A stretch of 64,000 bases of DNA, taken from Candidatus Amesbacteria bacterium. Lineage in GTDB: Bacteria > Patescibacteriota > Microgenomatia > CAZETR01 > Amesbacteraceae. The translations under genes were made by a program, and so were the position numbers. The number at the start of each line of letters is the position of its first letter. Position 1 is the first letter of the stretch. The stretch lies in assembly GCA_963736875.1 (NCBI GenBank), contig CAVTQH010000003.1, positions 65,756-129,755 on the forward strand, written 5' to 3'. A model generated the notes under the pieces. That model did not search any database and had not been told where the DNA came from. It saw nothing but the letters and a program-made list of their open reading frames with translations. Of the stretch, positions 20,812-39,071 are shown piece by piece.

Positions 20812-20916
20812 GTTTTGAGGGTAAAGGGTAAGCGGGAAAATGTCCAGAGTGAATTTTTGACAAAAAAACAGCCGGATTTGATTCCAGAAATTTTTAGGCC
20901 TATAATTAGTCGCGTT

Positions 20917-22125
20917 ATGGGAAATGAGGAATTCAGATCGGAATATTCCGGCCGGGCAAAGGATGAGATCCGCGGAGTGGAGGCGGCAAATGAAGCCAAG
21001 CAGGCGGGGGTGGAATTACTCAAAGAGATCCACCGGCAGGTAGCCGGGAATTTCCGTCTCTGGGAGTCGGAACGACATCCGGGGGTGGCGGAGGTTTATA
21101 GTTATGTGAGCGTTTTGGAGATTATTAAAAAATTGGGAAGTGAAGAATTGAGAGGATTGGCGGCGACGGCCGGCGATGATATAGAAAAGGATGAATGGAT
21201 ACTTTTTTCCAGCAAACCGATGCAGGCGATTCTGCCGCCCCTGAATGTATTCGGTGCGGACGGAAGCCCGGTAACAGCGATGGATATTGCGATTGAGGAT
21301 TTGGGAAAAGCGATAAATCAGGTGTCCAGAAGTCTTAGAGAAGGGAAACCTGCAGATGTAGTGTGGAAACTGGTGGGAAGTCCGGTCGGACCGGGAGGGA
21401 AAGTGACGGAAGAATTTGTCAGTGATATGGAAAAGGGAAGTTATTATAAGGAATTTACGGATTTACATACGGAGATGTTAGAGCAGGAGTTGGGCAATTC
21501 CAAAGTGAAGAAATTAATATTGACCGGCCAATCTTACGGAGCATCGATGGCGGTTTTAACTGCCCGGAAGCTGGAGGAAGAAATTGGGGAGAATGATATG
21601 AAAAAAGCGGAGGTATTGGCAGATGATCCGGTGGTGGCTTATAAAGGAACAGGCGGCGGACAGAAATTGATATTGGGTTCAGTATTAGAAGCTTTTGAAG
21701 GTTTATGGCAGAGAAGGAAGGATTATGCGGCTAAATTTTGGATAACTAATGAATATAAGCGTTTTCTGGAGATAAAAGGGATAAAACCGGATGATGATCA
21801 GGAACAAACCGAACTGAAAAACAGGATGCAGAAGGTAATAGACAGAGACTTGAACGTCGGACCCCAGGTAACAATGGGGGAGGATCTGTATCCGGATAAA
21901 ATCAAAGTGTTTATCAGGCAGGGGGCTTATGACGAAACTCAGGTAGGGGAAAAATTGGTAGGGAAGCAGGAATGGGAGACCTTTAAGTTTAAGGGTACAC
22001 TGGCTCCATTTAGGCATGAAAAACATAATGTCAGAGTCTATGGTTACGGGAGCGGTCATGCGATGGATAGATTTAGAAGAATTGATAGGTTTGTCAAGGC
22101 TGCGGATTTATTGAGAAATGTTTAA
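20917..22125 (+). CDS. hypothetical protein with lipase class-3-like GxSxG elbow
   Basis: 'KKLILTGQSYGASMAVLTARKL' resembles the lipase_3 nucleophile elbow. The ORF is open from 20815; ATG 20917 is the more likely start. Confidence 0.35.
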   Translation: MGNEEFRSEYSGRAKDEIRGVEAANEAKQAGVELLKEIHRQVAGNFRLWESERHPGVAEVYSYVSVLEIIKKLGSEELRGLAATAGDDIEKDEWILFSSKPMQAILPPLNVFGADGSPVTAMDIAIEDLGKAINQVSRSLREGKPADVVWKLVGSPVGPGGKVTEEFVSDMEKGSYYKEFTDLHTEMLEQELGNSKVKKLILTGQSYGASMAVLTARKLEEEIGENDMKKAEVLADDPVVAYKGTGGGQKLILGSVLEAFEGLWQRRKDYAAKFWITNEYKRFLEIKGIKPDDDQEQTELKNRMQKVIDRDLNVGPQVTMGEDLYPDKIKVFIRQGAYDETQVGEKLVGKQEWETFKFKGTLAPFRHEKHNVRVYGYGSGHAMDRFRRIDRFVKAADLLRNV

Positions 22126-22146: not shown

Positions 22147-22175
22147 TTTACGGGGGTATACATCTGGGGTATAAT
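22147..22175 (+). promoter_or_regulatory. candidate sigma-70 promoter for the 16S gene (TTTACG - 17 nt - TATAAT)
   Basis: -35 at 22147-22152, -10 perfect TATAAT at 22170-22175, ~140 nt upstream of the 16S 5' end. A second TTGAAA-15-TATAAA lies at 22204-22230. Confidence 0.35.
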
Positions 22176-22312
22176 TGTTTTCTGCTTTATGGATATACGC
22201 TCATTGAAAATTGAGGTTGGCGTTTATAAATCTATCTTCTTGTACTTCAGGAAGTGGTATCGCATTTAATTATGCGATGCGTTGGCTGCTTTTAGCAGTC
22301 TGCGCAGGAAAA

Positions 22313-23803
<1,491 letters not shown>

Positions 23804-23981
23804 CTAGGAGTAATTGATCACGGTATCCGCGCAAAGTAATTTGCGGGGTAAGTGAACACCCTGAGATTTTGACTGTTTTCTCATTAATAAGAACAGTCCG
23901 ATAATATTGGACCGGCAACAAGTCATAGTCTGTCCAGATATTTTTTCCTACCACTTCCAGAAGTAGAAGAGATTTATTAAA

Positions 23982-24007
23982 CCCGCTTTGCAAAAGGCGG
24001 GTTTTTT
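23982..24007 (+). terminator. rho-independent terminator downstream of 16S
   Basis: CCCGCTTT-GCAA-AAGGCGGG stem (8 bp, GNRA loop) followed by TTTTTT. Confidence 0.6.
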
Positions 24008-24027
24008 GGTGGTGTTAAGATTAATAG

Positions 24028-24228
24028 GTGGATGATATAAATCAAAAAATCGTTGAGCTGGAAGAAAAACTGGCGAAGTTTAGGCCGAAATATCTGGAGG
24101 CAAAAAAGTATTTCAGGGGGGTGAGCCATGAAAATTCACTGGCTGAACTCCGGTATACACAATTCATGGTTTATAAAGATCTGGTGGAGGGATTGGAAAG
24201 AGAAATTGCACGGCTGAAGCATAAATGA
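24028..24228 (+). CDS. hypothetical small coiled-coil protein
   Basis: 66-aa ORF; AGGTGG RBS 7 nt upstream of ATG 24028. Confidence 0.35.
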   Translation: MDDINQKIVELEEKLAKFRPKYLEAKKYFRGVSHENSLAELRYTQFMVYKDLVEGLEREIARLKHK

Positions 24229-24240
24229 TAGATTAGAAGG

Positions 24241-26805
24241 GTGGAGGAGAAAGAAGAGGAAGTACTACAGACAGACGCAGTACCGGAAGTAAAGCCGTTC
24301 CGGGTAAGAAAATTTCGGGTGGGTGTGATGGCAGGTCTTTTAGTACTGGTGACCGGGCTGGCGCTGTCAATCGTTGCCGTACAGAAAAAAACAGAAACGA
24401 AAGGAAAAGCTGCTGGGATCGATACTATACTGGAAGTAGAACAAGCTGTCGGTTTGGCGGACCTTATTTATACCGGGAGTGAGAACAACCTGAATGTAAC
24501 GAATCCACAAAGCGGGGTGTATGTACTAAAGGCCAATGCTTTTGCCTGTACACCCGGGACACAGAATTGTGATCCGGACCGGTTTGAAATCAGGTGGAAC
24601 TCCAAAATCAACAGGGTATACGGCTTGGGGGTACAGCCGGCGGTGAATCAGGTGGAACTGGAGGATTTTCTGGATGAACAATTCAGCTTCGGACATTGTC
24701 TGGGAAACCGGAAAGACGGGGTAAAAATGGAAGCTTATGCGGAGGGGGGTTGCCGGTTGAGAACTCCGATTATGGTCTTTCCGGAAAAAAACACACTGGT
24801 GGCATATATTCAGCCGGAGATAAAGAGGCTGAGGCTGACCAGAAACGGGCAATACGGCTGTCCAGCAAACAATACCTGTGTAGTAATGAAAAAACATGAA
24901 CAATTTCCGGAAGGGCAGCCGGGCGCGTTCATAATTATTAAAAGGGATACTTTAGCCCAGACATACCAGGCGTATTATCAATACCTGAAATCAATAGGCA
25001 GGTATATGAAGGAACCAAACTACAACGCGTTCGGAGTTAATTGGGAGACCTTTGATGAATTTAAATGTGAAGCCACCAAGTCGGATGTATTGAATGCCGT
25101 TCAAAATTATAAAAATAAGGGAATTAAGCTGGGAACCGTAACTATCGGTTCCGGATACTGGCAATCACAGGCTTTAGTGGGATGCGGACATATCCAAACA
25201 GAATATTTCGGGTTACCCACAACGGATACTCTGGCAGTGGATTCGGTGAAGTATCCGTATGACGGTGGAAATGGGAACGGTCTGAATCAATTATTCATGA
25301 CATTAAGAAACCAGGGAATACAGCCGATGATCGGGATGAGGCATCAGATACAACCCGGGAATGCAGGTTTTGACAATATCGCGGCCATACAGTCCAAGTT
25401 TTCGGGAAAGGGAATAAACGGAAACATATTCGTATCAGCCAATTTGAATGATCCGGCAACCAAAATGCCCATGATTATTGCCGATTACTACAAACTGAAT
25501 AACAAAAATTATTTTCAGTATCATTATCTTTTAAGAACTGATGACAGCAGGATCACTGATGCCTGGATTGATTTGATAAGGGAAGCTTACGGGGATTTCA
25601 GCGGTATAAAACACGATGATATGACGATATCCGATCAGAGAACAGCGCTGGTGAAAATGACGAATTTATCATTTTTCCGTACCTTGAGTCCGACACCGAT
25701 TCAGGCTGTTGGGGTCAGAGGAAACGGCGGCGATGATTATTCAACCAGAATTTTTGAAAGGTATGTTCAAAAAATAGGTCAGAATAAGGCGATTATTTTT
25801 ACAGATAACGATTGGTTTTCCGTCGGCGGTGACGGTGAGGAGCAGGACGGATTGGTTGAACATTATCCGAATATGAATCCTCCGGCAAGTTGGACCGGAT
25901 ACGGGTTTAAATATTATCTGGATAACAATCTGACCCGGGTATTTTCGGGTTATCCGAATCCGATGAATATCATCGGACCCAAGTGGTTTGGGGATTATAT
26001 CTGGGAAGGGTATAAGCTAAAGACGATAAAGTCACCGGTGCAGTATTTAAGAGCCAATCAGATAGCGACATTTTTACCGGTGGAAACCATTTCGGCTGGT
26101 TTCTGGCATTTATCCACTACGGAATACCAGGGGACGGCGGTGTGGTATCTGCAGCTGCGAAACAGACTACAGCAATATTTTTACGACCAGGCGATGAAAT
26201 GGTATCAAACCGGCGAACCCTGGGCCATGCGACCTCTGACTTTGGACTGGGGTAATGATGCCAATGTCGATCAGTTGTATTCATGGACAACGGATGCGAA
26301 TACGATCAGGGATGAGTTCATGAGCAGGGAATGCGTTATTGATCAGACCGGTGTTTACCGAACCCGCATCGGGAAAGGTGTCCGTGTATTTTCCCAGAGG
26401 AAGTGGCTGCCATTAATCAGCAAACCAAATACCATATCCAGGGTGTACGGTGATACTGCAGGCGGGAGGTATGAGGATTACACCATACCCAGTCTGAGCT
26501 CGGGAACTGTGGGTGACAGAATTGATTACCCGGTATTTATTAAAGAGAAGGAGCTATTAATTATCGGTGATGCGACTGATCCGGTAAAACTCAAGGGTTA
26601 TGTGTTTTTGGATTCCGGTGAATCAAATATTTATAAGTTTTATAACAAAAATACCAAAACAAAATATGAACTGAAAGCTATATATACCAACGGGAGTGTA
26701 AAATTGCGTAATATTACTACCGGAGTTGAACTAACGTCGTGTACAAAGAATAGTACAAAGCTGTTTTGGGATTGCTCTAACGTCAATTCAATTATCGGCT
26801 ATTGA
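24241..26805 (+). CDS. large (854 aa) membrane-anchored/secreted hypothetical protein; possible TIM-barrel glycoside-hydrolase-like region
   Basis: N-terminal TM 'VGVMAGLLVLVTGLALSIVAV'; extracytoplasmic body rich in G/N/Y/W. A weak 'DAWIDL' resembles the GH31 'W.DMNE' motif, so no function is assigned. Confidence 0.5.
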   Translation: MEEKEEEVLQTDAVPEVKPFRVRKFRVGVMAGLLVLVTGLALSIVAVQKKTETKGKAAGIDTILEVEQAVGLADLIYTGSENNLNVTNPQSGVYVLKANAFACTPGTQNCDPDRFEIRWNSKINRVYGLGVQPAVNQVELEDFLDEQFSFGHCLGNRKDGVKMEAYAEGGCRLRTPIMVFPEKNTLVAYIQPEIKRLRLTRNGQYGCPANNTCVVMKKHEQFPEGQPGAFIIIKRDTLAQTYQAYYQYLKSIGRYMKEPNYNAFGVNWETFDEFKCEATKSDVLNAVQNYKNKGIKLGTVTIGSGYWQSQALVGCGHIQTEYFGLPTTDTLAVDSVKYPYDGGNGNGLNQLFMTLRNQGIQPMIGMRHQIQPGNAGFDNIAAIQSKFSGKGINGNIFVSANLNDPATKMPMIIADYYKLNNKNYFQYHYLLRTDDSRITDAWIDLIREAYGDFSGIKHDDMTISDQRTALVKMTNLSFFRTLSPTPIQAVGVRGNGGDDYSTRIFERYVQKIGQNKAIIFTDNDWFSVGGDGEEQDGLVEHYPNMNPPASWTGYGFKYYLDNNLTRVFSGYPNPMNIIGPKWFGDYIWEGYKLKTIKSPVQYLRANQIATFLPVETISAGFWHLSTTEYQGTAVWYLQLRNRLQQYFYDQAMKWYQTGEPWAMRPLTLDWGNDANVDQLYSWTTDANTIRDEFMSRECVIDQTGVYRTRIGKGVRVFSQRKWLPLISKPNTISRVYGDTAGGRYEDYTIPSLSSGTVGDRIDYPVFIKEKELLIIGDATDPVKLKGYVFLDSGESNIYKFYNKNTKTKYELKAIYTNGSVKLRNITTGVELTSCTKNSTKLFWDCSNVNSIIGY

Positions 26806-26855
26806 GTTGAGGGATTGGAGAAGGAAATCAGGGAGCTGAAGAAATCTGCCGGGAG

Positions 26856-27407
26856 TCAGGGAATGTAATGCTGGTTAATAATAATTATTTCTCCCCCTAT
26901 AACCGTAATATTGAAGGGGGATTTGGATATCCAATTATCCGGTGATTTCGGGTCCTGAAAGATATTCCGGAGTTGGGACGGGGTGATGGTTTTGTAAGGT
27001 TTTGATTTAGGGTTTGTTTCATCCCAATCAGGGTTTAATATTAAAGTTCCGATTTTGGTAAAGGAAGCTATCGGGTAAGAGGTGGCCTTAGGATCGGAAT
27101 TTTGGATATAGTATCCATCCGGAACACAGGATTTGGTGATCGGGAGTGAGCACCCGGAACATATTTTGTCCATCGCACAGGCAATGGATGCCGGAAATTC
27201 GGTATTTGTGTCTTTTAACCACCGGGCGGGGTCAAAATCCAGATAGACGGATTTGTTTTTTGTGTAGACACTGGTGATATAACCAAAAAGAACTCTGGTG
27301 GGGGAAACCGGGGAGGGAGTAAGGATAAAAATTATCAGGCAGGCGGCAATAATTACTACTACCAGGACCAGGGTGAAGGAGAAAGTAAATTTTTCCGATT
27401 TGTCCAT
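26856..27407 (-). CDS. hypothetical membrane-anchored protein
   Basis: 183-aa ORF with N-terminal TM 'FTLVLVVVIIAACLIIFIL'. Confidence 0.4.
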   Translation of the reverse strand: MDKSEKFTFSFTLVLVVVIIAACLIIFILTPSPVSPTRVLFGYITSVYTKNKSVYLDFDPARWLKDTNTEFPASIACAMDKICSGCSLPITKSCVPDGYYIQNSDPKATSYPIASFTKIGTLILNPDWDETNPKSKPYKTITPSQLRNIFQDPKSPDNWISKSPFNITVIGGEIIIINQHYIP

Positions 27408-27706
27408 GATTGAGACGGTTGGTTTAGTAAATTATAAACCCATTATGGACTGCAGCGCGAAAGTGACCACATATGAGGATGGGTGATGGTGGATGCGCAA
27501 GGAATATCAAAGCAGAGCTTTTCTTTGTAATTGTGGTGGGCTGCCTAGGAGTCGGACCTAGCATCTCCTTCTTATCAGGAAGGCATTCTACCGCTAAACT
27601 AGCAGCCCTTTTTGAGTATTTGAATTATATCGCAGGCGGGGGATTTGAGCGAGAGTAAGAGATATGACACTTGACATGTTAAGTATTGAAGGTTTAAGAT
27701 TTCCCG

Positions 27707-28159
27707 ATGTTAGGTGAAGTATTTGACGGAATTCCGGGAGTGAAGTTACACAAAGCGGCTTTTCTTATGGCTAAAAGAGTGGAGCGGGAATTGGTGGCTC
27801 GGACGGAACTGACATTTCACCAATTTATGATGCTGGTAATGGTAAAACATAAAGAACATTGCAAGCAGATGGAGATGGCCCGAATGGGGCATTTAACCGA
27901 AGCGGCTATATCGCGGATGGTAGGGGGAATGGTAGAAAAGGGATTGGTAACAAGGAAGGAGAACCCAAAAAGCCGGAGGGAACACGCAGTAGCTTTGACG
28001 GAAAAAGGAAAAAAAAGTCTGGAAAAAGGAATGGAGGTAGCCAAGGAGAGTTTGGGGGAGGTGTTGGATATCTTAACAGCGGAAGAGAAGGAGAAATTGG
28101 ATCTATTATTAGATAAAATATTGAGGTTTGTTTATACTGACAAAGAGAGTTATGCGTAA
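27707..28159 (+). CDS. MarR family transcriptional regulator
   Basis: 150 aa; 'LTFHQFMMLVMV...MARMGHLTEAAISRMVGGMVEKGLVTRKENPKSRREHAVALTEKG' winged-HTH typical of MarR. Confidence 0.7.
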   Translation: MLGEVFDGIPGVKLHKAAFLMAKRVERELVARTELTFHQFMMLVMVKHKEHCKQMEMARMGHLTEAAISRMVGGMVEKGLVTRKENPKSRREHAVALTEKGKKSLEKGMEVAKESLGEVLDILTAEEKEKLDLLLDKILRFVYTDKESYA

Positions 28160-29153
28160 GTATCTGACCAGAAGAAACGTCATTATTGCGATTGTAGTGG
28201 TGTTTATATTGGGATGGTGGTGGAACGGAAGGCGGGCAGCGGATAAAAAAAACGGATCGGTGAAAACTACCGAGGTAACAAGAGGGAAAGTAGTCTCGTA
28301 TCTTTCGGTTTCCGGGCAGGTAAAAGCCGATCAGCAGGCTGTTCTGAACTTTCCGGCTCCCGGGAAACTTTCTTATATCGGAGTAAAAGAGGGGGATTTG
28401 GTCAAATCTGGCAAGTTGTTGGCATCATTGGATTTGGGAGATTTGCAGACGGCATGGAACAGGGCTTATTACCAATATTTGGCAGCTGATGCCAATGCGA
28501 AGCTGGTGGAAGATCAGGTGAAGGATCATGATAAAGATGAATCGTTTGTACAAAAAAATACCAGAGTAGCCGCCCAAACAGCCAGAGATATGGCATATGA
28601 TACGATGCTGGCTGCGGAGCGGGCAATCAATAACGCCAAACTCACCGCTCCTTTTGAAGGAATAGTAACTACTGTTACAGCTACGGCTGTCGGAGATACG
28701 GTAAGCGTGACCGACGGGGTGACGGTGGTTAATCCGAAAAGTCTTTATTTTTCGGCCGAAGTAGATGAATCGGATGTGGGGAAAGTCAGTCAAATTCAAA
28801 AGGTGGAAGTGAATCTGGACGCATATCCCGGCGAGAAATTTTCGGCAAGTATCGGGGAAATCGGATTTGTATCACAATTATCGTCAACCGGAGCAACGGT
28901 TTATCCGGTGAAGTTGCGTTTTCCGCCGGAGGTCTTATCCAAACTGAGAATCGGTATGAACGGGGATGCAAAAATAATTTTGGCAGTAAAAGAAAATGTA
29001 CTGAAACTGCCGGTGGAAGCGATAGTAGACGGAGAAGTGATATTGGATGGTCAGGAGAAGAAAAAGATAAAAGTGGTGACCGGGCTTGAGGGGGATATGG
29101 ATACGGAAATAGTCAGCGGAATAAATGAGGGCATAAAGGTGGTTATCCAGTGA
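28152..29153 (+). CDS. HlyD/MacA-type periplasmic adaptor (membrane fusion protein) of an ABC efflux system
   Basis: N-terminal TM 'VIIAIVVVFILGWWW', coiled-coil region, beta-barrel/lipoyl-like C-terminus; overlaps the marR end. Confidence 0.75.
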   Translation: MRKYLTRRNVIIAIVVVFILGWWWNGRRAADKKNGSVKTTEVTRGKVVSYLSVSGQVKADQQAVLNFPAPGKLSYIGVKEGDLVKSGKLLASLDLGDLQTAWNRAYYQYLAADANAKLVEDQVKDHDKDESFVQKNTRVAAQTARDMAYDTMLAAERAINNAKLTAPFEGIVTTVTATAVGDTVSVTDGVTVVNPKSLYFSAEVDESDVGKVSQIQKVEVNLDAYPGEKFSASIGEIGFVSQLSSTGATVYPVKLRFPPEVLSKLRIGMNGDAKIILAVKENVLKLPVEAIVDGEVILDGQEKKKIKVVTGLEGDMDTEIVSGINEGIKVVIQ

Positions 29154-29166
29154 ACAGGAAAGTGAT

Positions 29167-29876
29167 ATGACGAAAGCAGTTCCGGTCATAGAATTTGTAA
29201 ATGTGGGGAAGGAATACGGAGATCCCAATGAAGGGGGGACGGTGGTGGAGGCGTTGGCGGAGGTAATTTAGGGTCCAAAAAGGGGAATTTGTAGCCATAA
29301 CCGGACCTTCGGGGAGCGGAAAATCTACTCTTTTGCATCTTATTGGTCTTTTGGATAAACCAACTTCCGGAAAAATTTTTGTAGACGGAATAGAAATTTC
29401 AGATTTGTCGGAAAACAGAATGGCTCAAATCTGAGGAATGAAAAAATCGGTTTTGTTTTTCAGCAATTTAACCTGCTGTCTAAAGACAGCCGCTATTATG
29501 AATGTGGAACTGCCTCTTATATACCGGGGCATGGGTCAAAAAGAGAGACATGAGAAATCAAAAAAAGAACTAATGGCAGTTGGCCTTGGGGGATAGATTG
29601 AATAACAAGCCGTCACAGTTATCCGGCGGACAACAACAGAGGGTGGCTATTGCCAGGGCACTAGTGACAGAACCGTCTCTTCTTTTGGCTGATGAACCGA
29701 CGGGAAATCTGGATACCAAATCAGGAATAGAAATTATGAAAATACTTGAGGATTTGCACGAGAATGGGGTAACGATAATTTTAGTGACCCATAATCCGGA
29801 GTTAGCTGATCAGGCAGACAGGCAGTTAATTATCAGGGATGGCAGAATTGTCAAAGATACGGGAGGTAAAAAATAA
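29167..29876 (+). pseudogene. ABC transporter ATP-binding protein (MacB/LolD-type) disrupted by >=5 frameshifts
   Basis: Joining frames gives 'IEFVNVGKEYGD...[36 protein letters not shown]...NEKIGFVFQQFNLL...[15 protein letters not shown]...[12 protein letters not shown]' (Walker A, Q-loop, signature, Walker B). These segments lie in at least five different frames between 29167 and 29580. Confidence 0.7.
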
Positions 29877-31089
29877 TGGACCAGACAGAACTATTCCGAT
29901 CGTCAATTAGGGCGATTATCACGAATAAAACCAGATCGGCTCTGACGGCATTGGGAATAATTATCGGTGTAGCGTCGGTGATATTGCTGGTATCTATCGG
30001 TAGTGGCCTGGAGCGGTACGTGACCAAGCAATTTGAAAGTCTGGGAGCGAATCTGGTATTTGTGGCACCGGGAAAAATAAAACTTATCCGGCGGCGGCGG
30101 CGGGGACCCCCGACGGGTTTTACTTCCAAGTTTACTTTTGATGATGTCAGGGAACTGGAGAGGTTGGGAGACCCGATTTCGGGAGTAAGCGGGATACTAA
30201 CGAAATCCGGAACTGCTAAATACGGAAGCAAATCATATGACGTAACAATTATGGGTATAGATGAAAAATATCCGAATATGTCTAACATTAAGCCTCAAAA
30301 AGGACAGTCTATTACCAAATCAATGGTAGAAAGATCACAAAATATTACAATGGTAGGACCGAAAGTTGTAGAAAATTTATTTCCTTCGGGAGCTGATCCT
30401 ATCGGCAAACAAGTAGACCTGGCAGGAAGGAAGTATGTAATAGGCGGGAGTGACAGAATCTAAGGGTGGAGGTATAGGGGGGAGCGGGGATCGGGACAGT
30501 ATTGTGTTTATACCGGTAACAACTGCCCAAAAAATGATGGGTACAAAAAGTCCGGCGATCGATAATTGTCCAAGCTAGCTCTTCTGATGGTGTGGCGGTG
30601 GTAACCAGGGAAATAAAGAGATATTTTTACAGGAGGAAATTGACTGATGATGATTTTACCGTTTTGGAGCCGAAACAAATATTGGAAACTGTAAATTCAT
30701 TTTTGGGAGTGATTACTGTAGCGTTGTCGGGAATTGCTGCTATTTCACTGGTGGTGGGGGGAATCGGAATTGCCAATATCATGTTTGTATCAGTTACCGA
30801 AAGAACCAGGGAAATTGGTTTACGTAAAGCTCTGGGAGCAACAAAAAGAGATATCCTGATGCAATTTTTAATTGAATCGCTAACTCTATCAATATTGGGG
30901 GGAGGGGTAGGAATTCTTATTGGGGGAGGGCTTTCGATACTGATGAATAAATTTATTGAGACGTATGTAACATTGAACTCAGTTATCCTATCTTTCGGGA
31001 TTTCGGCAATAGTGGGAGTTGTATCCGGAATTGCTCCGGCAATCAGGGCGGGGAACCTAAATCCGATTGATGCACTGAGGTATGAATAA
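29876..31089 (+). pseudogene. ABC transporter permease (MacB/FtsX family) with two frameshifts
   Basis: ORF 29876-30463 (TM1 + periplasmic domain) and ORF 30592-31089 (FtsX 3-TM domain ending 'PIDALRYE') sit in different frames. A third frame in between encodes 'GGGIGGSGDRDSIVFIPVTTAQKMMGTKSPAIDN'. Shifts at a G-run (~30446) and ~30565. Confidence 0.65.
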
Positions 31090-31222
31090 ATTTGGTGGTC
31101 TGACAAGGTTCTTAGGGCGAGGTAGGATACGGTTACCTTTTTGAGGGTGCTTTTTTCCATGAGAATCTTGCAAATAACCTATTTTTTTACCAGCCAGTAG
31201 TTTATTGGCTAGCAAGCTTCTG

Positions 31223-31246
31223 GAATTAAGCCCCCAATAGGGGCTT
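31223..31246 (+). terminator. rho-independent terminator after the permease gene
   Basis: GCCCCC-AATA-GGGGGC hairpin followed by TTTTTT. Confidence 0.5.
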
Positions 31247-31272
31247 TTTTAAAATTTTGGGACAGAGCGTTG

Positions 31273-31345
31273 GGGCCCGTAGTTCACCTGGTAGAACACT
31301 TCGTTTGCAACGAAGAGGTAAGCGGTTCGAGTCCGCTCGGGTCCA
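31273..31345 (+). tRNA. tRNA-Ala (anticodon TGC)
   Basis: Acceptor stem GGGCCCG/CGGGTCC with the G3:U70 alanine identity pair. Anticodon loop TTTGCAA, T-arm AGCGG-TTCGAGT-CCGCT, discriminator A; CCA is not encoded. Confidence 0.9.
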
Positions 31346-31459
31346 CTGATTTGGTTGTCAGTCCCGGTCCCGCTTTGTACGGGATCGAGATTGACAACCA
31401 AAATACCGGTTGCTCTTTGAAAAGTGAAGAAAATAAAGTAGTAGAGCCGTATTTTTTAT

Positions 31460-34737
<3,278 letters not shown>

Positions 34738-34794
34738 CGACACTCTATTACTAAAATTTTCTTCACCTTTCAGGGAGCAAAGAAGGCAAGTTTT

Positions 34795-34912
34795 TCCCGG
34801 TCATCTGAGCGGCGTGGAACTACCTCTTCCCATTCCGAACAGAGCCGTAAAATGCGCCAGCGCGGACAATAGCTAAGTCGCGAGACTTCGTGAAGATACG
34901 TCATGGCCGGGA
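34795..34912 (+). rRNA. rrf: 5S ribosomal RNA
   Basis: Helix I CCCGGTCAT / ATGGCCGGG; internal 'CCCATTCCGAACAGAG...GCGCCAG' loop-C/helix-III region. Followed by a T8 run (34922-34929). Confidence 0.8.
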
Positions 34913-34945
34913 ATAACTTGCTTTTTTTTGGAGTAAAATCGGGGA

Positions 34946-35929
34946 ATGAAATGGTGGATGGGATTATTGGCGGGATTTGTCATCGGATTGGGGGTGGGAT
35001 ATGAGATTTATGTTACGCGGTCTGTTAGTAATTACCCGGGACAGTTAAGTCAGAAAGAAGCGGAAAGACCGCTATTGAAGTATACGATTGAGAGTTTGGC
35101 GGGGAGGGAATATAGTTCCAAAATTATTTTGGATGGAATAGTCGCTACGGAAGCGGCTTTTTTTGTGCAAAGATTTCACTTCGATTCCGACGGGAAAGCG
35201 GTGACCGGTCTGGCTCATATGCCAAGGTCTTGTGAGAAGTGTCCGATTATCATCCAATACCGTGGTTACGCAGAGTCTGAGAAGTATTATCAGGGATACG
35301 GAACCAAACACAGTGCGGAAACATTTGCGGCTCGCGGATTTATCTCGTTGGCTCCCGATTTTTTGGGATACTGGAAATCGGCCAGCCCTTCGGCAGATGT
35401 GTTTGAGGCCAGATTTGAAACATACACGACGGCCCTTAATATATTGGCGGCTGCTGAAAATTGGGAGATGGGAAACGGAAAGATAGGAATTTGGGGGCAC
35501 AGCAACGGCGGGCAGATTACATTGACTGTGTCGGAGATATCACAAAAAGATTATCCGGTCGTGTTGTGGGCTCCGGTATCGGCGGGTTTTCCGTATTCGA
35601 TACTATATTATATGGACGGAAATGAAGAAGGGGATAGAGAATTAAGAAAGAAACTGGTTGATTTTGAAAATGTATATGATACCGGATTGTTTAATTTAAT
35701 AAATTATTTAAACAAAATAAATGCACCGATTCAATTACATCAGGGAACAGGTGATAAATCAGTACCGGAGGATTGGAGTAGAAGGCTGATTGAGAGACTA
35801 AACAGTTTGAAAAAGAAAGTAAATTATTATGAATATCCGGGGGCAGATCATAACCTGATTCCGGATTGGGGTTTGGCTGTGGAAAGAGACGTCCAATTTT
35901 TTATACAAAATTTGGGATTGACGGAATAG
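34946..35929 (+). CDS. alpha/beta-hydrolase (dienelactone hydrolase / S9 peptidase-like)
   Basis: N-terminal TM; 'IGIWGHSNGGQI' nucleophile elbow, 'HQGTGDKSVP' and 'GADHNL' catalytic Asp/His motifs. GGAG RBS upstream. Confidence 0.7.
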   Translation: MKWWMGLLAGFVIGLGVGYEIYVTRSVSNYPGQLSQKEAERPLLKYTIESLAGREYSSKIILDGIVATEAAFFVQRFHFDSDGKAVTGLAHMPRSCEKCPIIIQYRGYAESEKYYQGYGTKHSAETFAARGFISLAPDFLGYWKSASPSADVFEARFETYTTALNILAAAENWEMGNGKIGIWGHSNGGQITLTVSEISQKDYPVVLWAPVSAGFPYSILYYMDGNEEGDRELRKKLVDFENVYDTGLFNLINYLNKINAPIQLHQGTGDKSVPEDWSRRLIERLNSLKKKVNYYEYPGADHNLIPDWGLAVERDVQFFIQNLGLTE

Positions 35930-35952
35930 GGTTTTACCGGTAATAATGGTCG

Positions 35953-37617
35953 GTGTCTTCAAATAAAGTGACGAAATTTATCTTTGTATCAGGAGGGGTA
36001 ATATCCGGCTTGGGGAAGGGGATAACCGCGGCTTCGCTGGGATTATTGCTGGAGTCAAAAGGGATAAGAGTAACGAATGTCAAAATCGACATGTATCTTA
36101 ATGTGGATGCGGGAACCATCCGACCGGCGGAGCACGGAGAGGTGTTTGTAACTGACGACGGGATTGAGACGGATCAGGATATCGGCCATTATGAGAGATT
36201 TTTAAACAGATCACTGAGGCGCGAGAACTATATAACCACAGGTCAGGTATATAAAACTGTGATTGAGAAGGAAAGGGCATTTGCTTATAACGGGGAAGAT
36301 GTGGAAGCCATACCTCATGTAACGGATGAAATTATTTCCCGGTTGAAAAAAGCGGGAGAAGTGAATGAAGCGGGGGCGGTGATCGTAGAACTGGGGGGGA
36401 CTGTGGGGGAATACCAGAACGCCATATTTTTTGAAGCCAGCCGGATAATGAAATTGAAACAACCGGAAAACGTAATCCACGTTCATGTGACTTATCTGCC
36501 GGTGATCAGAAGTATAGGGGAGCTAAAAAGTAAACCGGCACAACAGTCGGTGCAGAGATTAAATTCAATGGCAATTCAGCCTGATATGCTGGTAGCCAGA
36601 AGCGAAAGGGAGATTGACCAGAGAAGACGGGAACGTCTGGCATTATTCTGCAATATGCGGGACGGGGATATTATTACCAATCCTGATTTAAGCAATATTT
36701 ACGAAGTGCCTTTACATCTTGACGGGCAGAGACTGGCGGAAAAAATAATAAAGAAGCTGGGATTAAAGGCTAAAGATCGGGGTTTGCGGGAGTGGCATAA
36801 TTTTGTCAGGGCGCTGCAAAGAGGGGAGAAGAAAGTCAAAATTGCATTAGTAGGTAAATATTTTGCCACGGGGGATTATACTTTGTCGGATTCGTATATT
36901 TGTGTAGTAGAAGCCTTAAAACATGCCTCGGCCAGATGGAATGTAGTACCTGATCTGCATTGGATAAATTCCGATGATGTAGTAAATAACAAGGCAGGAA
37001 AGTATTTGAAGGGATTTGACGGATTGATTGTACCCCAGGGCTGGGGAAGCCGTGGGGTGGAAGGGAAGATTACAGCTATAGAATTTGCCAGGAAAAACAG
37101 AATTCCTTACCTGGGATTATGTTTCGGGATGCAGATGGCAGTGATTGAATTTGCCAGGAATGTTTTAAGTTTGGCCGGTGCCAATTCTGAAGAAGCAGAT
37201 GCCAAAACCCGGGATCCGGTAATACATGTGATGCCGGACCAGAAAAAATATTTAAAAGAACATCAATACGGGGGGACCATCAGACTGGGCTCATGGCCTT
37301 GCCTGGTTAAACCCGGATCAATATTAGAGGGTGCATACCGGAGTTACGGAAAGAAGCCAAACATGATCAGCAAAGGAATTGTTAACGAGAGGCACAGGCA
37401 CAGATATGAGTTGAATAATAAATACAGGGAAGAACTGGAAAAATCCGGCTTGATAATTTCAGGTACCAGCCCGGACGGAAAATTGGTGGAAGCAATAGAA
37501 TTATCCGCAAAAGTTCACCCGTTTTTTGTGGGGACACAGTTTCATCCCGAATACAAAAGCCGGCCGCTGTCACCACATCCGTTGTTTGTAGCTTTTATCA
37601 AAGCAGCTTTGAGATGA
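35953..37617 (+). CDS. pyrG: CTP synthase
   Basis: 'KFIFVSGGVISGLGKGITAAS' and the C-terminal glutamine amidotransferase 'LGLCFGMQMAVIEFARNV'. Start is GTG 35953 or 35968. Confidence 0.9.
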   Translation: MSSNKVTKFIFVSGGVISGLGKGITAASLGLLLESKGIRVTNVKIDMYLNVDAGTIRPAEHGEVFVTDDGIETDQDIGHYERFLNRSLRRENYITTGQVYKTVIEKERAFAYNGEDVEAIPHVTDEIISRLKKAGEVNEAGAVIVELGGTVGEYQNAIFFEASRIMKLKQPENVIHVHVTYLPVIRSIGELKSKPAQQSVQRLNSMAIQPDMLVARSEREIDQRRRERLALFCNMRDGDIITNPDLSNIYEVPLHLDGQRLAEKIIKKLGLKAKDRGLREWHNFVRALQRGEKKVKIALVGKYFATGDYTLSDSYICVVEALKHASARWNVVPDLHWINSDDVVNNKAGKYLKGFDGLIVPQGWGSRGVEGKITAIEFARKNRIPYLGLCFGMQMAVIEFARNVLSLAGANSEEADAKTRDPVIHVMPDQKKYLKEHQYGGTIRLGSWPCLVKPGSILEGAYRSYGKKPNMISKGIVNERHRHRYELNNKYREELEKSGLIISGTSPDGKLVEAIELSAKVHPFFVGTQFHPEYKSRPLSPHPLFVAFIKAALR

Positions 37618-37907
37618 ACTTTTTTAAGGAAGTTTACGAAGTGGTGAAGAAAATCCCCGCCGGCAAAGTAATGACTTATGGTCAGGTGGCCGGGGTGGTG
37701 GGAAGCAGGGATGCCAGAAGGGTGGGACAGGCACTGCATGCCAATAAGGATCTGAATGTACCCTGCCACCGGGTAGTGTTTGCCGACGGGAGCCTGGCTC
37801 CGGGTTTTGCTTTCGGGGGCATGGAAAGACAGAGAGAAAAACTGAAGAAAGAGAAAGTGATGTTTGCGGGTTTGAGAGTGGATATGTTAAAATCCCGTTA
37901 CTCTTAA
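37614..37907 (+). CDS. methylated-DNA-protein-cysteine methyltransferase DNA-binding domain protein (MGMT family, active-site PCHRV)
   Basis: 'PAGKVMTYGQVAGVVG...NVPCHRVVFADGSL' carries the PCHR acceptor-cysteine motif. 97 aa; start overlaps the pyrG stop (ATGA). Confidence 0.7.
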   Translation: MNFFKEVYEVVKKIPAGKVMTYGQVAGVVGSRDARRVGQALHANKDLNVPCHRVVFADGSLAPGFAFGGMERQREKLKKEKVMFAGLRVDMLKSRYS

Positions 37908-37928
37908 AGAAAGCGAGGAAAATGAAAA

Positions 37929-39071
37929 TTGACTACCAAGAAGACTACTGTAACTAAAACGTCAGGCACACCGATAACAATGGGGGAGCTTCTGGCCAAA
38001 ACCGGATACAAGCTGAGAGGATTTAAAAGAGGGGAGAAGGTCAAGGGAACTATCGTGGAGGTCACGAATAAAACCGTCTATATAGATGTGGGGGGGAAAG
38101 CTGAGGCGGTGGTTTCCGAACAGGAATATGATTTGGCCAGAGACTATTTCAGAGTCCTGAAACCGGGTGAGACGGTAGAGGGAATAGTGTTGATTCCGGA
38201 AAACGATGCCGGCCAGGTTATTTTGTCTTTACGAAGAGCGGCAATTGACACCAAATGGGGCAGTCTGGAGCAGGCGATGACTGAAGAGAAGGATATTCCC
38301 GTAAAAGTACGGGAGGTGACAAAAGGAGGTTTACTTGTGGATGCGGACGGAGTGTTTGGGTTTATTCCGACATCCCAGCTCGGGAAAGAGTGGGAGGGGA
38401 ATTTAACTTCTGCAGTAGGTAAAGAAATCCGGGCTAAAGTGCTGGAAGTTGACCGGTCACAAAACAGGCTGGTTTTATCAGAAAGGGCAGTATCGGAAGT
38501 GGAGGAAATTGCTGGGCGGAAGAAGGCTTTGGGCGCGGTAAAAGTCGGCGGAGATTATGAAGCAATGGTGGTGGGAGTGGTACCTTTCGGGGTGTTTGCG
38601 GAAATCGAGATACCTGCCGGTTCGGGAAAAAAGCAGGATAAGCAGGCAGAGCAGACCAAATTAGAGGGGCTGATTCATATCAGTGAATTGTCCTGGGAGA
38701 AAATCGACGATGTGAACCGGGCGGTTAAGGTGGGAGACAAGATTAAAGTTCAAGTGATAGGTATTGATGAAGATAACGGTAAGTTGGCCTTGTCGGTAAA
38801 AAGGCTGACTGATGATCCCTGGGGAGTGGTGCAAAAGAAATTTAAAACTGACAGTAAGCATTCGGGAGAAGTTGTGAAAGTTGCACCATACGGGGTGCTT
38901 GTCAGGCTGGATAAAGGTATAGAGGGATTGATTCACGCATCCAAAATGCCAGGTGAAATGGCTTTTGCGGAAGGTCAGAAAGTGGAAGTGTTTGTGGAAT
39001 CAGTGGATTTGGAGAAAAGAAGGTTATCACTGGGAGTAATTTTGTCGGCAAAACCGGTGGGGTATAAGTAA
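37929..39071 (+). CDS. rpsA: 30S ribosomal protein S1 (four S1 domains)
   Basis: Repeated S1 OB-fold motifs ('GEKVKGTIVEV', 'VKVREVTKGGLLVD', 'YEAMVVGVVPFGVFAEI', 'HSGEVVKVAPYGVLVRL'). Start uncertain (TTG 37929 or ATG 37980). Confidence 0.8.
   Translation: MTTKKTTVTKTSGTPITMGELLAKTGYKLRGFKRGEKVKGTIVEVTNKTVYIDVGGKAEAVVSEQEYDLARDYFRVLKPGETVEGIVLIPENDAGQVILSLRRAAIDTKWGSLEQAMTEEKDIPVKVREVTKGGLLVDADGVFGFIPTSQLGKEWEGNLTSAVGKEIRAKVLEVDRSQNRLVLSERAVSEVEEIAGRKKALGAVKVGGDYEAMVVGVVPFGVFAEIEIPAGSGKKQDKQAEQTKLEGLIHISELSWEKIDDVNRAVKVGDKIKVQVIGIDEDNGKLALSVKRLTDDPWGVVQKKFKTDSKHSGEVVKVAPYGVLVRLDKGIEGLIHASKMPGEMAFAEGQKVEVFVESVDLEKRRLSLGVILSAKPVGYK

Follow-up and report, generated by a model that had tools for sequence, protein, structure and literature searches.

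In a 64,000-nucleotide stretch of a Candidatus Amesbacteria genome (assembly GCA_963736875.1, contig CAVTQH010000003.1, positions 65,756 to 129,755; hereafter the window, with coordinates counted from its first base), the ribosomal RNA (rRNA) genes very probably form three separate, anciently unlinked transcription units that stand in canonical order and have gained genes at their boundaries. The 16S rRNA gene (22314-23803, plus strand; Rfam RF00177, 1303.9 bits, full length) is separated by a gap of 7652 nt (23803 to 31456) from the 23S rRNA gene (31456-34736, plus strand; Rfam RF02541, 2065 bits), which is preceded by a gene for the transfer RNA (tRNA) tRNA-Ala(TGC) (31273-31346, plus strand; Rfam and ARAGORN) and followed by the 5S rRNA gene (34796-34912, plus strand; Rfam RF00001, 68.6 bits). 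A preliminary description of the window, made from its letters alone, had reported that 7.4 kb of protein genes split 16S from tRNA-Ala-23S-5S and that a tRNA-Ala with a G3:U70 pair lies just upstream of 23S; the Rfam and ARAGORN coordinates confirm the split and the position of the tRNA, and the G3:U70 pair can be read directly from the sequence. The same description implied that tRNA-Ile was missing, but the interval contains a minus-strand gene for tRNA-Ile(GAT) (27534-27608; ARAGORN and Rfam, 57.2 bits), which is antisense to every rRNA gene and divides the 16S-23S interval into at least two blocks of differing history. What is reported below on genes, strands, repeats, frameshifts and the conservation of signals was read from the sequence or from its comparison with related loci.

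The window belongs to a Microgenomates-type bacterium of the Candidate Phyla Radiation (CPR) that has kept the order 16S, tRNA-Ile, tRNA-Ala, 23S, 5S. On this reading, the first unit would comprise a promoter, a boxA element, 16S within a processing stem, and a terminator; the second, the opposite-strand tRNA-Ile with its own -10 element, possibly together with a gene for a 183-amino-acid (aa) membrane protein; and the third, a promoter, a structured leader, tRNA-Ala, a hairpin, boxA, 23S within a processing stem, and 5S. Functional unlinking would be old and common to the sampled Microgenomates subclade, the units having been separate while still adjacent, and their boundaries would then have gained genes stepwise. 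A gene for a 66-aa coiled-coil protein (cc66) and a MarR-MacA-MacB set would already have been present in the common ancestor with a related metagenomic locus, L095; later, in the lineage of the window and a closer relative, L094, a GH31-like gene would have entered the 3′ end of cc66 and the membrane protein gene would have been gained; and last, the ATPase and permease of the MacB system would be decaying in the lineage of the window alone.

Predicted signals of the three rRNA units

Separate 16S and 23S-5S transcripts are predicted from a terminator at 23982-24007 and a promoter and leader at 31100-31272, which are kept in relatives. The top sigma-70-like score of the region (10/12) belongs to a promoter-like site 139 nt before 16S (TTTACG-17-TATAAT, 22147-22175, plus strand), downstream of which a boxA-like element read from the sequence by similarity only (CGCTCATTGAAAA, 22198-22210, plus strand) resembles boxA-like motifs in the 16S leaders of relatives. 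An inverted repeat (I2; 22 nt, 91% complementary) flanks 16S exactly, with its 5′ arm at 22238-22259 and its 3′ arm at 23949-23970 (both plus strand), and a similar sequence is found in L095. Behind it stands the clean GNRA-loop terminator that the preliminary description had noted, and both its sequence (CCCGCTTT-GCAA-AAGGCGGG with a T6 tail, 23982-24007, plus strand) and its fold agree with that call: the 76-nt stretch that contains it folds at -24.1 kcal/mol (z = -3.3). A homologous hairpin is present in L095, and a hairpin with a T-run lies 137-192 nt past 16S in 10 of 20 relatives, including the compact loci L019 and L034.

The middle unit has a candidate -10 element (TATAAT, 27625-27630, minus strand) 16 nt upstream of tRNA-Ile, and a -10-like hexamer (mostly TAAAAT or TATAAT, often after TGn) stands ~10-35 nt upstream of tRNA-Ile in all 14 relatives with enough upstream sequence (14/14). 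tRNA-Ile is antisense also in L094, L095-L097, L015-L017, L019, L026, L034, L036 and L052, and lies on the same strand as the rRNA genes in L025, L029, L032, L033, L037, L057/L092, L072 and L077.

Ahead of the third unit, a predicted promoter for tRNA-Ala-23S-5S (CTGACA-17-TAGGAT, 31100-31128, plus strand; 9/12 in the promoter-site scan) occupies the position of the strong TTGACA-17-TAATAT/TATTAT promoter of relatives. The segment 31100-31272 is homologous to the promoter and leader upstream of tRNA-Ala in those relatives, and this homology upholds the promoter region that had been proposed earlier for a 23S-5S unit transcribed on its own. Between tRNA-Ala and 23S lies a 22-bp hairpin (inverted repeat I3, 31350-31402, plus strand; -35.3 kcal/mol, z = -7.5), followed by the 5′ arm (31410-31434, plus strand) of an inverted repeat (I1; 25 nt, 88% complementary) that pairs with 34756-34780 (plus strand) beyond 23S. 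The 5′ arm contains a boxA-like element (TGCTCTTTGAAAA, 31411-31423, plus strand), and the motif TTGyaCTTTaACAAGTGAAGA at this arm is kept in relatives. I1 and I2 are the two longest inverted repeats of the region, bracket 23S and 16S exactly, and look like the processing stems of the large rRNAs. The boxA of E. coli is TGCTCTTTAACAA; boxA-like motifs stand at 22198-22210, 31244-31268 and 31411-31423, and also in relatives, with similarity judged by eye only. From their placement and conservation we infer that these predicted promoters and terminators are functional.

The canonical rrn operon, as in E. coli rrnA, rrnD and rrnH, runs 16S-tRNA-Ile-tRNA-Ala-23S-5S with a 16S-23S gap of ~0.4 kb. 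The window shares with it the gene order, the anticodons GAT and TGC, boxA-like elements before 16S and 23S, and long bracketing stems, but it is not a linked operon of this kind: tRNA-Ile is inverted and antisense, the spacer measures 7.65 kb (7652 nt), a terminator follows 16S, and a separate promoter and leader precede tRNA-Ala.

A single giant operon, in which boxA-modified polymerase from the 16S promoter would pass the terminator and 7.5 kb of sequence into 23S-5S while internal promoters were minor, would have transcription collide with tRNA-Ile and the membrane protein gene, both of which lie on the minus strand, and we consider it very unlikely. It would account for boxA-like elements before both 16S and 23S, some read-through is likely given that cc66 begins 20 nt past the terminator with no room for a promoter, and the sequence from the MacB stop (31089) to the leader is free of terminators; however, relatives have a conserved strong promoter upstream of tRNA-Ala, and many have no 16S within 4-12 kb of tRNA-Ala-23S. 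A comparable layout in Borrelia burgdorferi, with one 16S gene, an opposite-orientation tRNA-Ile between 16S and 23S, and kilobases of spacer, gives three independent transcripts by reverse-transcription PCR, one for the 16S unit, one for tRNA-Ile by itself and one for 23S-5S (Bugrysheva et al. 2011, PMC3037291). This likeness is convergent, since Borrelia belongs to a different phylum; tRNA-Ala there stays with 16S, whereas in the window it heads the 23S unit, and Borrelia has two tandem 23S-5S sets, unlike the window.

Unlinking and gene order in related genomes

Related loci were collected with a 28-nt 16S signature, which gave 35 genome loci with 16S genes 75-83% identical to that of the window, and with a tRNA-Ala signature, which gave 50 metagenome loci. 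Among the 35, those with plausible titles are mostly Microgenomates (Woese-, Beckwith-, Davies- and Cerribacteria), and many titles are uninformative or implausible; Microgenomates-like 16S genes also stand under 'uncultured Pseudomonadales' or 'Gammaproteobacteria' titles (L008, L010, L014, L018, L020-L022, L024, L027, L034, L035, L040 and L041), which look like placeholder or wrong taxonomy. The 16S-23S spacer lengths of relatives form a continuum: the gap is ~1.3-2.8 kb in L019, L026, L034 and L036 and 4.4 kb in L032, seven loci have no 23S within 4-6.6 kb after 16S, and at least ten have no 16S within 4-12 kb before tRNA-Ala-23S. The tRNA-Ala-23S(-5S) arrangement is conserved, and a strong TTGACA-17-TAnnnT promoter with a leader is found in most loci that reach far enough upstream. 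Spacer proteins vary by lineage and include peroxiredoxin (AhpC), a PF20603 hydrolase, LAGLIDADG endonucleases in group I introns, RNHCP, HicA and unknown secreted proteins.

Comparison by blastp of the window's spacer proteins with the open reading frames (ORFs) of 20 of the 35 16S-selected loci returned no matches, a null result that would be misleading if taken alone because those genomes are only 75-83% identical in 16S; closer relatives came from a search with MacA. In L095, L096 and L097, from three Joint Genome Institute (JGI) assemblies, MacA is 68% and 16S 88.9% identical to the window. The L095 contig carries, in order, CdaA (minus strand), 16S, the same terminator sequence, a 94-aa ORF, cc66, an antisense tRNA-Ile, a GT87 gene (minus strand), the same MarR promoter, MarR, MacA, an intact ATPase, and MacB to the contig end. 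Since cc66, the antisense tRNA-Ile and MarR-MacAB follow 16S in the same order as in the window, this arrangement is ancestral at roughly the family level. L094 is closer still (MacA 89% identical; 83-91% nucleotide identity) and carries the C-terminus of a GH31-like protein, the 183-aa gene (minus strand), an antisense tRNA-Ile, MacA, and an intact ATPase and permease, with no MarR; its contig end reads TTGACA-17-TAATAT-gagaatac, resembling the start of the 23S leader.

The preliminary description took the interval for a single efflux/secreted-protein cassette that had recently been inserted into an intact operon of 16S, internal transcribed spacer (ITS) and 23S, displacing 16S and forcing 23S-5S to depend on a promoter of its own or on read-through. 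We find this quite unlikely. Part of it stands: the canonical order is retained, with tRNA-Ala directly before 23S, and inserted genes have drawn it out, the spacer measures no more than 1.3-2.8 kb in some relatives, and the GH31-like gene is truly a later insertion with a flanking duplication. The interval is not one segment, however, since the antisense tRNA-Ile splits it, and its recent origin is largely refuted by the presence of cc66, antisense tRNA-Ile and MarR-MacAB behind 16S in L095 (89% identical in 16S). The 16S terminator and the 23S promoter and leader are kept in relatives that have no such cassette, and neither GC content nor GC skew shows a break anywhere across the 16S-23S interval. 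Displacement of 16S by the insertion did not hold up either, as the 16S terminator and the tRNA-Ile and 23S promoters are also present in relatives whose rRNA genes are still close together.

Nor is the layout unusual for this lineage, contrary to what had been suggested. rRNA genes have been called unlinked when the ITS exceeds 1500 bp, a state common in Patescibacteria (Brewer et al. 2019/2020, 10.1101/705046), or when 16S and 23S are more than 2000 bp apart with intervening genes unable to connect them in an operon (Lui et al. 2021, PMC8172020); in the latter study, 27 of 34 circularised CPR genomes were unlinked, spacers held protein genes and opposite-strand genes, and the Microgenomatia distances were 2872, 8467, 8974 and 8985 bp (S1 table). 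As in those genomes, the window has 16S and 23S-5S on the same strand, kilobases apart, with tRNA and protein genes between them, some on the opposite strand (tRNA-Ile, 27534-27608, and the 183-aa ORF, 26856-27407), and its 7652 bp lies beyond the 1500-2000 bp limits and within the published range. The window is thus a further case of a layout already documented in CPR bacteria, Microgenomatia included, and the split operon itself adds little, because unlinked rRNA genes are documented in Microgenomatia at the same distances. Both studies classify by distance and strand only, and neither 'tRNA-Ile' nor 'Ile' occurs in their supplementary tables; the present analysis adds the antisense tRNA-Ile, the 16S terminator, the 23S promoter and leader, and a stepwise gene history. 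The window would offer a dated, stepwise case of gap growth, from functional unlinking through gene gains at the unit boundaries (one of them marked by a 36-nt target duplication) to decay of the cargo, and the conserved signals of each unit turn the question of how these organisms co-ordinate 16S with 23S synthesis into a concrete one that can be tested.

Several observations weigh against three anciently separate units. The L095 contig ends inside MacB, so that 23S is not reached there, and in L094 the place of the leader behind MacB is taken by an 812-aa gene with no homologue in the window. tRNA-Ile must have switched orientation more than once, because it lies on the same strand in some relatives. 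Promoter-like sites number 21 in the region against 18.9 expected, which is chance level, so our promoter assignments rest on position and conservation, and the hexamers of the window's own leader promoter are weak (CTGACA, TAGGAT). Finally, no retrieved independent assembly covers the join at ~24008-24027 or that at 31090-31099.

Such uncovered joins, together with the standing of rRNA genes as classic break and mis-join points in metagenome assemblies, would fit an assembly chimera in which 16S and 23S contig ends had been misjoined to an unrelated gene block. We nevertheless regard a chimera as extremely improbable: the 180 nt after 16S, terminator included, are homologous in L095, where cc66, tRNA-Ile and MarR-MacAB likewise follow, and three JGI assemblies carry this arrangement; the 170 nt before tRNA-Ala are the conserved leader; L094 independently joins the GH31-like gene, the membrane protein gene, tRNA-Ile and MacAB; and composition is uniform. 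Two contigs from an independent run (Logan, ERR12040022) match the window almost perfectly, L093 at 100% over 27574-28886 (from the 5′ part of tRNA-Ile into MarR) and L007 at 99.97% over 34814-37933. Exact-protein look-ups with the 854-aa, 183-aa, 66-aa and 165-aa products found no contigs.

Probable stepwise gain and decay in the 16S-23S interval

ORF calls and Pfam agree with the inventory given in the preliminary description, which listed a coiled-coil protein, an 854-aa protein, a membrane protein, a MarR regulator and MacA-MacB-like proteins. The gene for cc66 (24028-24228, plus strand) starts 20 nt after the 16S terminator, and its product matched no family in the Pfam search. Homologues of cc66 stand beside rRNA-associated tRNA genes in L095:7325-7525 (73% aa identity) and in L057:2888-3067 and L092:5372-5485 (48-58% aa identity); because they adjoin tRNA-Ile and rRNA units in three separate lineages, we regard cc66 as syntenic with the rRNA region.

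The next gene (24241-26805, plus strand) encodes the 854-aa protein, which is membrane-anchored by an N-terminal transmembrane segment and distantly GH31-like: homologues 33-43% identical to it carry PF21365, and one also carries PF01055, while the window protein itself had no Pfam match and no PDB match. Six loci with homologues (L001-L006, 35-43% identity) had no rRNA genes nearby in a search made by blastn with the window rRNAs only, and are too distant to inform on close relatives. The gene is missing in L095 and present in L094. It is flanked by a direct repeat (D4; 36 nt, 72% identity, spacing 2622, plus strand) whose left copy (24184-24219) lies at the 3′ end of cc66 and whose right copy (26806-26841) lies within a putative remnant of the original cc66 3′ end (26806-26868, plus strand), which translates as VEGLEKEIRELKKSAGSQGM followed by a stop. 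This translation fits the C-terminus of cc66 in L095 (VEGLEKEIMRLKKREGS) better than the present end of cc66 does. Because the repeat flanks the gene and the downstream remnant matches the L095 C-terminus, the 854-aa gene is, judging from these sequences, a lineage-specific insertion into the 3′ end of cc66 with a 36-nt target duplication. Read-through from the rRNA promoters may drive cc66 and the GH31-like gene, as well as a hydrolase gene after 5S, which we infer because they start 20 and 34 nt past the upstream unit and the gaps (24008-24027 and 34913-34945) are too short to hold a promoter.

The 183-aa membrane protein gene (26856-27407, minus strand) lies downstream of tRNA-Ile, has an orthologue 88% identical in L094 and is absent from L095. 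Around the real tRNA-Ile of L094 (1367-1439) lie partial tRNA-Ile copies (1301-1341, 1495-1517 and 1570-1583) that look like recombination or integration scars at the tRNA. Such scars were also considered for the window and rejected, as no fragments were found there and L094 alone has them.

On the other side of tRNA-Ile, a predicted MarR promoter (TTGACA-18-TAAGAT, 27671-27700, plus strand; promoter-site scan) is nearly identical in L095 (window 27671-27709 against L095:8728-8768), and since it ends 6 nt before the ATG, the MarR mRNA would be leaderless or nearly so. The MarR-family regulator is intact (27707-28159, plus strand; PF01047, 2.6e-11), present in L095 and absent in L094. It is followed by an intact MacA/HlyD-like membrane fusion protein (28128-29153, plus strand; HlyD_D23 1.3e-14, HlyD_3 6.5e-10), whose ORF is uninterrupted, for which an identical 333-aa protein is on record, and which has 654 homologues, few of them with an organism name and those mostly Microgenomates or Woesebacteria.

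The remaining two genes of the set are broken, as had been reported. An ABC ATPase pseudogene (ABC_tran; 29167-29873, plus strand) carries four frameshifts, by frame analysis and alignment to an intact orthologue, and a MacB-type permease pseudogene (MacB_PCD and FtsX; 29876-31089, plus strand) carries two, by Pfam and alignment to its intact orthologue. The ATPase is intact in L094 (235 aa) and L095 (232 aa) and the permease in L094 (403 aa), and the two intact L094 proteins each align to the window in three frames. None of the frameshifts lies at a long homopolymer, and they look local rather than due to general sequencing noise, because the rest of the 64-kb window is tightly packed with long ORFs. 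Of a MacAB efflux system the window thus keeps an intact membrane fusion protein, but not an intact ATPase and permease, and the decay of MacB is, by comparison with L094 and L095, specific to this window's lineage.

A structured leader upstream of tRNA-Ala and 23S

The leader between the predicted 23S promoter and tRNA-Ala contains a candidate mini-ORF of 13 codons (MRILQITYFFTSQ followed by a stop; 31159-31200, plus strand) and a terminator-like hairpin (GCCCC/GGGGC with T6; 31230-31250, plus strand) that ends 22 nt before tRNA-Ala and is followed by a boxA-like element (AAAATTTTGGGACAG). The hairpin falls within the zone in which the preliminary description placed a possible 23S promoter, and it was missed there; the 41-nt stretch that contains it folds at -12.3 kcal/mol, no better than its own shuffles (z = -0.6). 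The window leader (31100-31272) is clearly homologous to that of L052 and similar to those of L058, L060, L063/L083 and L045, which together with it we call group A.

A CATG is invariant in the leader alignment (A1), and an ORF of 13-19 codons runs from the invariant ATG in all 26 non-redundant leaders (26/26; mean 15.9, standard deviation 1.5), ending in TAG in 11, TAA in 11 and TGA in 4; the two remaining frames give scattered ORF lengths, and shuffling a sequence yields an ORF of this length in 17% of cases. A manually picked hairpin with a T-run lies ~8-82 nt before tRNA-Ala in 13 of 13 group-A leaders; in three of them (L083, L077 and L092) the T-run lies only 3-5 nt before tRNA-Ala and leaves no room for a promoter, so that the rRNA transcript must cross it. 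The idea that the hairpin at 31230-31250 is merely the terminator of the MacB cassette is weakened both by these three loci and by relatives in which the promoter sits upstream of the equivalent hairpin.

The minimum-energy folds of the window, L052 and L060 leaders are a long rod that pairs the pre-ATG segment with the 5′ arm of the hairpin, and the other group-A leaders form this pairing once they are shortened before the 3′ arm. RNAalifold on MAFFT alignments of the leaders predicted no pairs, probably because the helices are out of register, and per-sequence duplex tests and a covariation count on a named structure were used thereafter. For group A, the duplex tests against shuffles gave Fisher P = 6e-4 for the pairing between the pre-ATG segment and the 5′ arm and P = 2e-7 for a helix around the ATG, values that overstate the evidence because related sequences do not make for independent tests.

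A second, larger set of leaders (group B; among L043-L089, for example L043:1380-1484, L075:2538-2645 and L048:1300-1405) stands upstream of tRNA-Ala-23S and has an ORF of 16-17 codons with peptides of the form MLKxFQ...AP before the stop. In these, a 10-16-bp helix exactly encloses the ORF and a GC hairpin (-11 to -21 kcal/mol; Fisher P = 1e-20), 12 of its 16 pairs are changed on both sides, and it scores 0.254 for covariation, compared with 0.154 +/- 0.019 for shuffles; group B leaders have this ORF-enclosing helix and no U-run terminator. We caution that RNA structure could explain part of the ORF signal, because group B leaders have their stop codon base-paired to the three nucleotides that immediately precede the ATG. 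A covariance model of group B (R1) found 22 sites, all upstream of tRNA-Ala; the 16S loci gave no site, and neither did the window at E <= 1. A single family uniting groups A and B was dropped, since R1 fails to detect the window leader.

A search of Rfam at E <= 5 matched neither the spacer nor the 23S leader to any family, and no paper on this leader or on an antisense tRNA-Ile in CPR bacteria turned up in the literature searched, which was incomplete. The leader, whose candidate mini-ORF sits within a helix that would compete with the terminator-like hairpin, may be the one feature here that is new. It could be an antitermination leader of the boxB/boxA type, a processing structure or a translation-sensing attenuator.

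We consider it rather unlikely that the leader (31129-31250) is a translation-sensing attenuator of rRNA synthesis; if it were, the start region of an untranslated mini-ORF, with its Shine-Dalgarno-like segment, would pair downstream to give the long rod, the rod would hide the 5′ arm of the hairpin and U-run, and RNA polymerase would continue into tRNA-Ala and 23S. Free ribosomes that translated the mini-ORF would open the rod, the terminator would form, and transcription of 23S-5S would stop. Leader peptides act in transcription attenuators such as the trp, his, thr and ilv leaders, and are found in the erm and cat leaders. The window leader resembles these in its short candidate ORF (13-19 codons across the leaders), in a start region predicted to pair downstream, in a hairpin with a U-run and in an alternative pairing that would hide the 5′ arm, but it precedes an rRNA/tRNA operon instead of amino-acid or resistance genes, and no regulatory run of codons is evident. 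Were attenuation to operate, the leader would be a cis-acting 'ribosome feedback' loop that could also balance 23S against the separately transcribed 16S; any regulation of rRNA transcription by the leader would be a new kind of control.

Hairpins with a U-run also occur in 16S leaders, where they stand between a promoter and boxA (for example GCGCTTTAACAAGTGAATA) in L009, L012, L016-L019, L026-L028, L036, L042 and L015/L034; the window and L095 have no such hairpin before the boxA of 16S. A terminator-like hairpin within rRNA leaders seems, from these sequences, to be a habit of the clade.

Other features of the rRNA region

The 23S gene of the window measures 3281 nt, ~350 nt above the 2925-position bacterial model, and an Rfam search of the gene at E <= 1 returned no intron or other family that would explain the extra length. 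The 16S and 23S genes of the relatives L016, L019, L026, L034 and L036 harbour group I introns with LAGLIDADG genes. Downstream of 5S, a gene for an alpha/beta-hydrolase starts after 34 nt, behind a U8 tract, with no space for a promoter in the gap (34913-34945). At the opposite edge, a 436-aa lipase-like gene (weak Lipase_3 match; 20815-22125) lies between CdaA and the 16S promoter; L095 has no counterpart at this place, and the gene is, by that comparison, apparently a further lineage-specific gain at the edge of the rRNA region.

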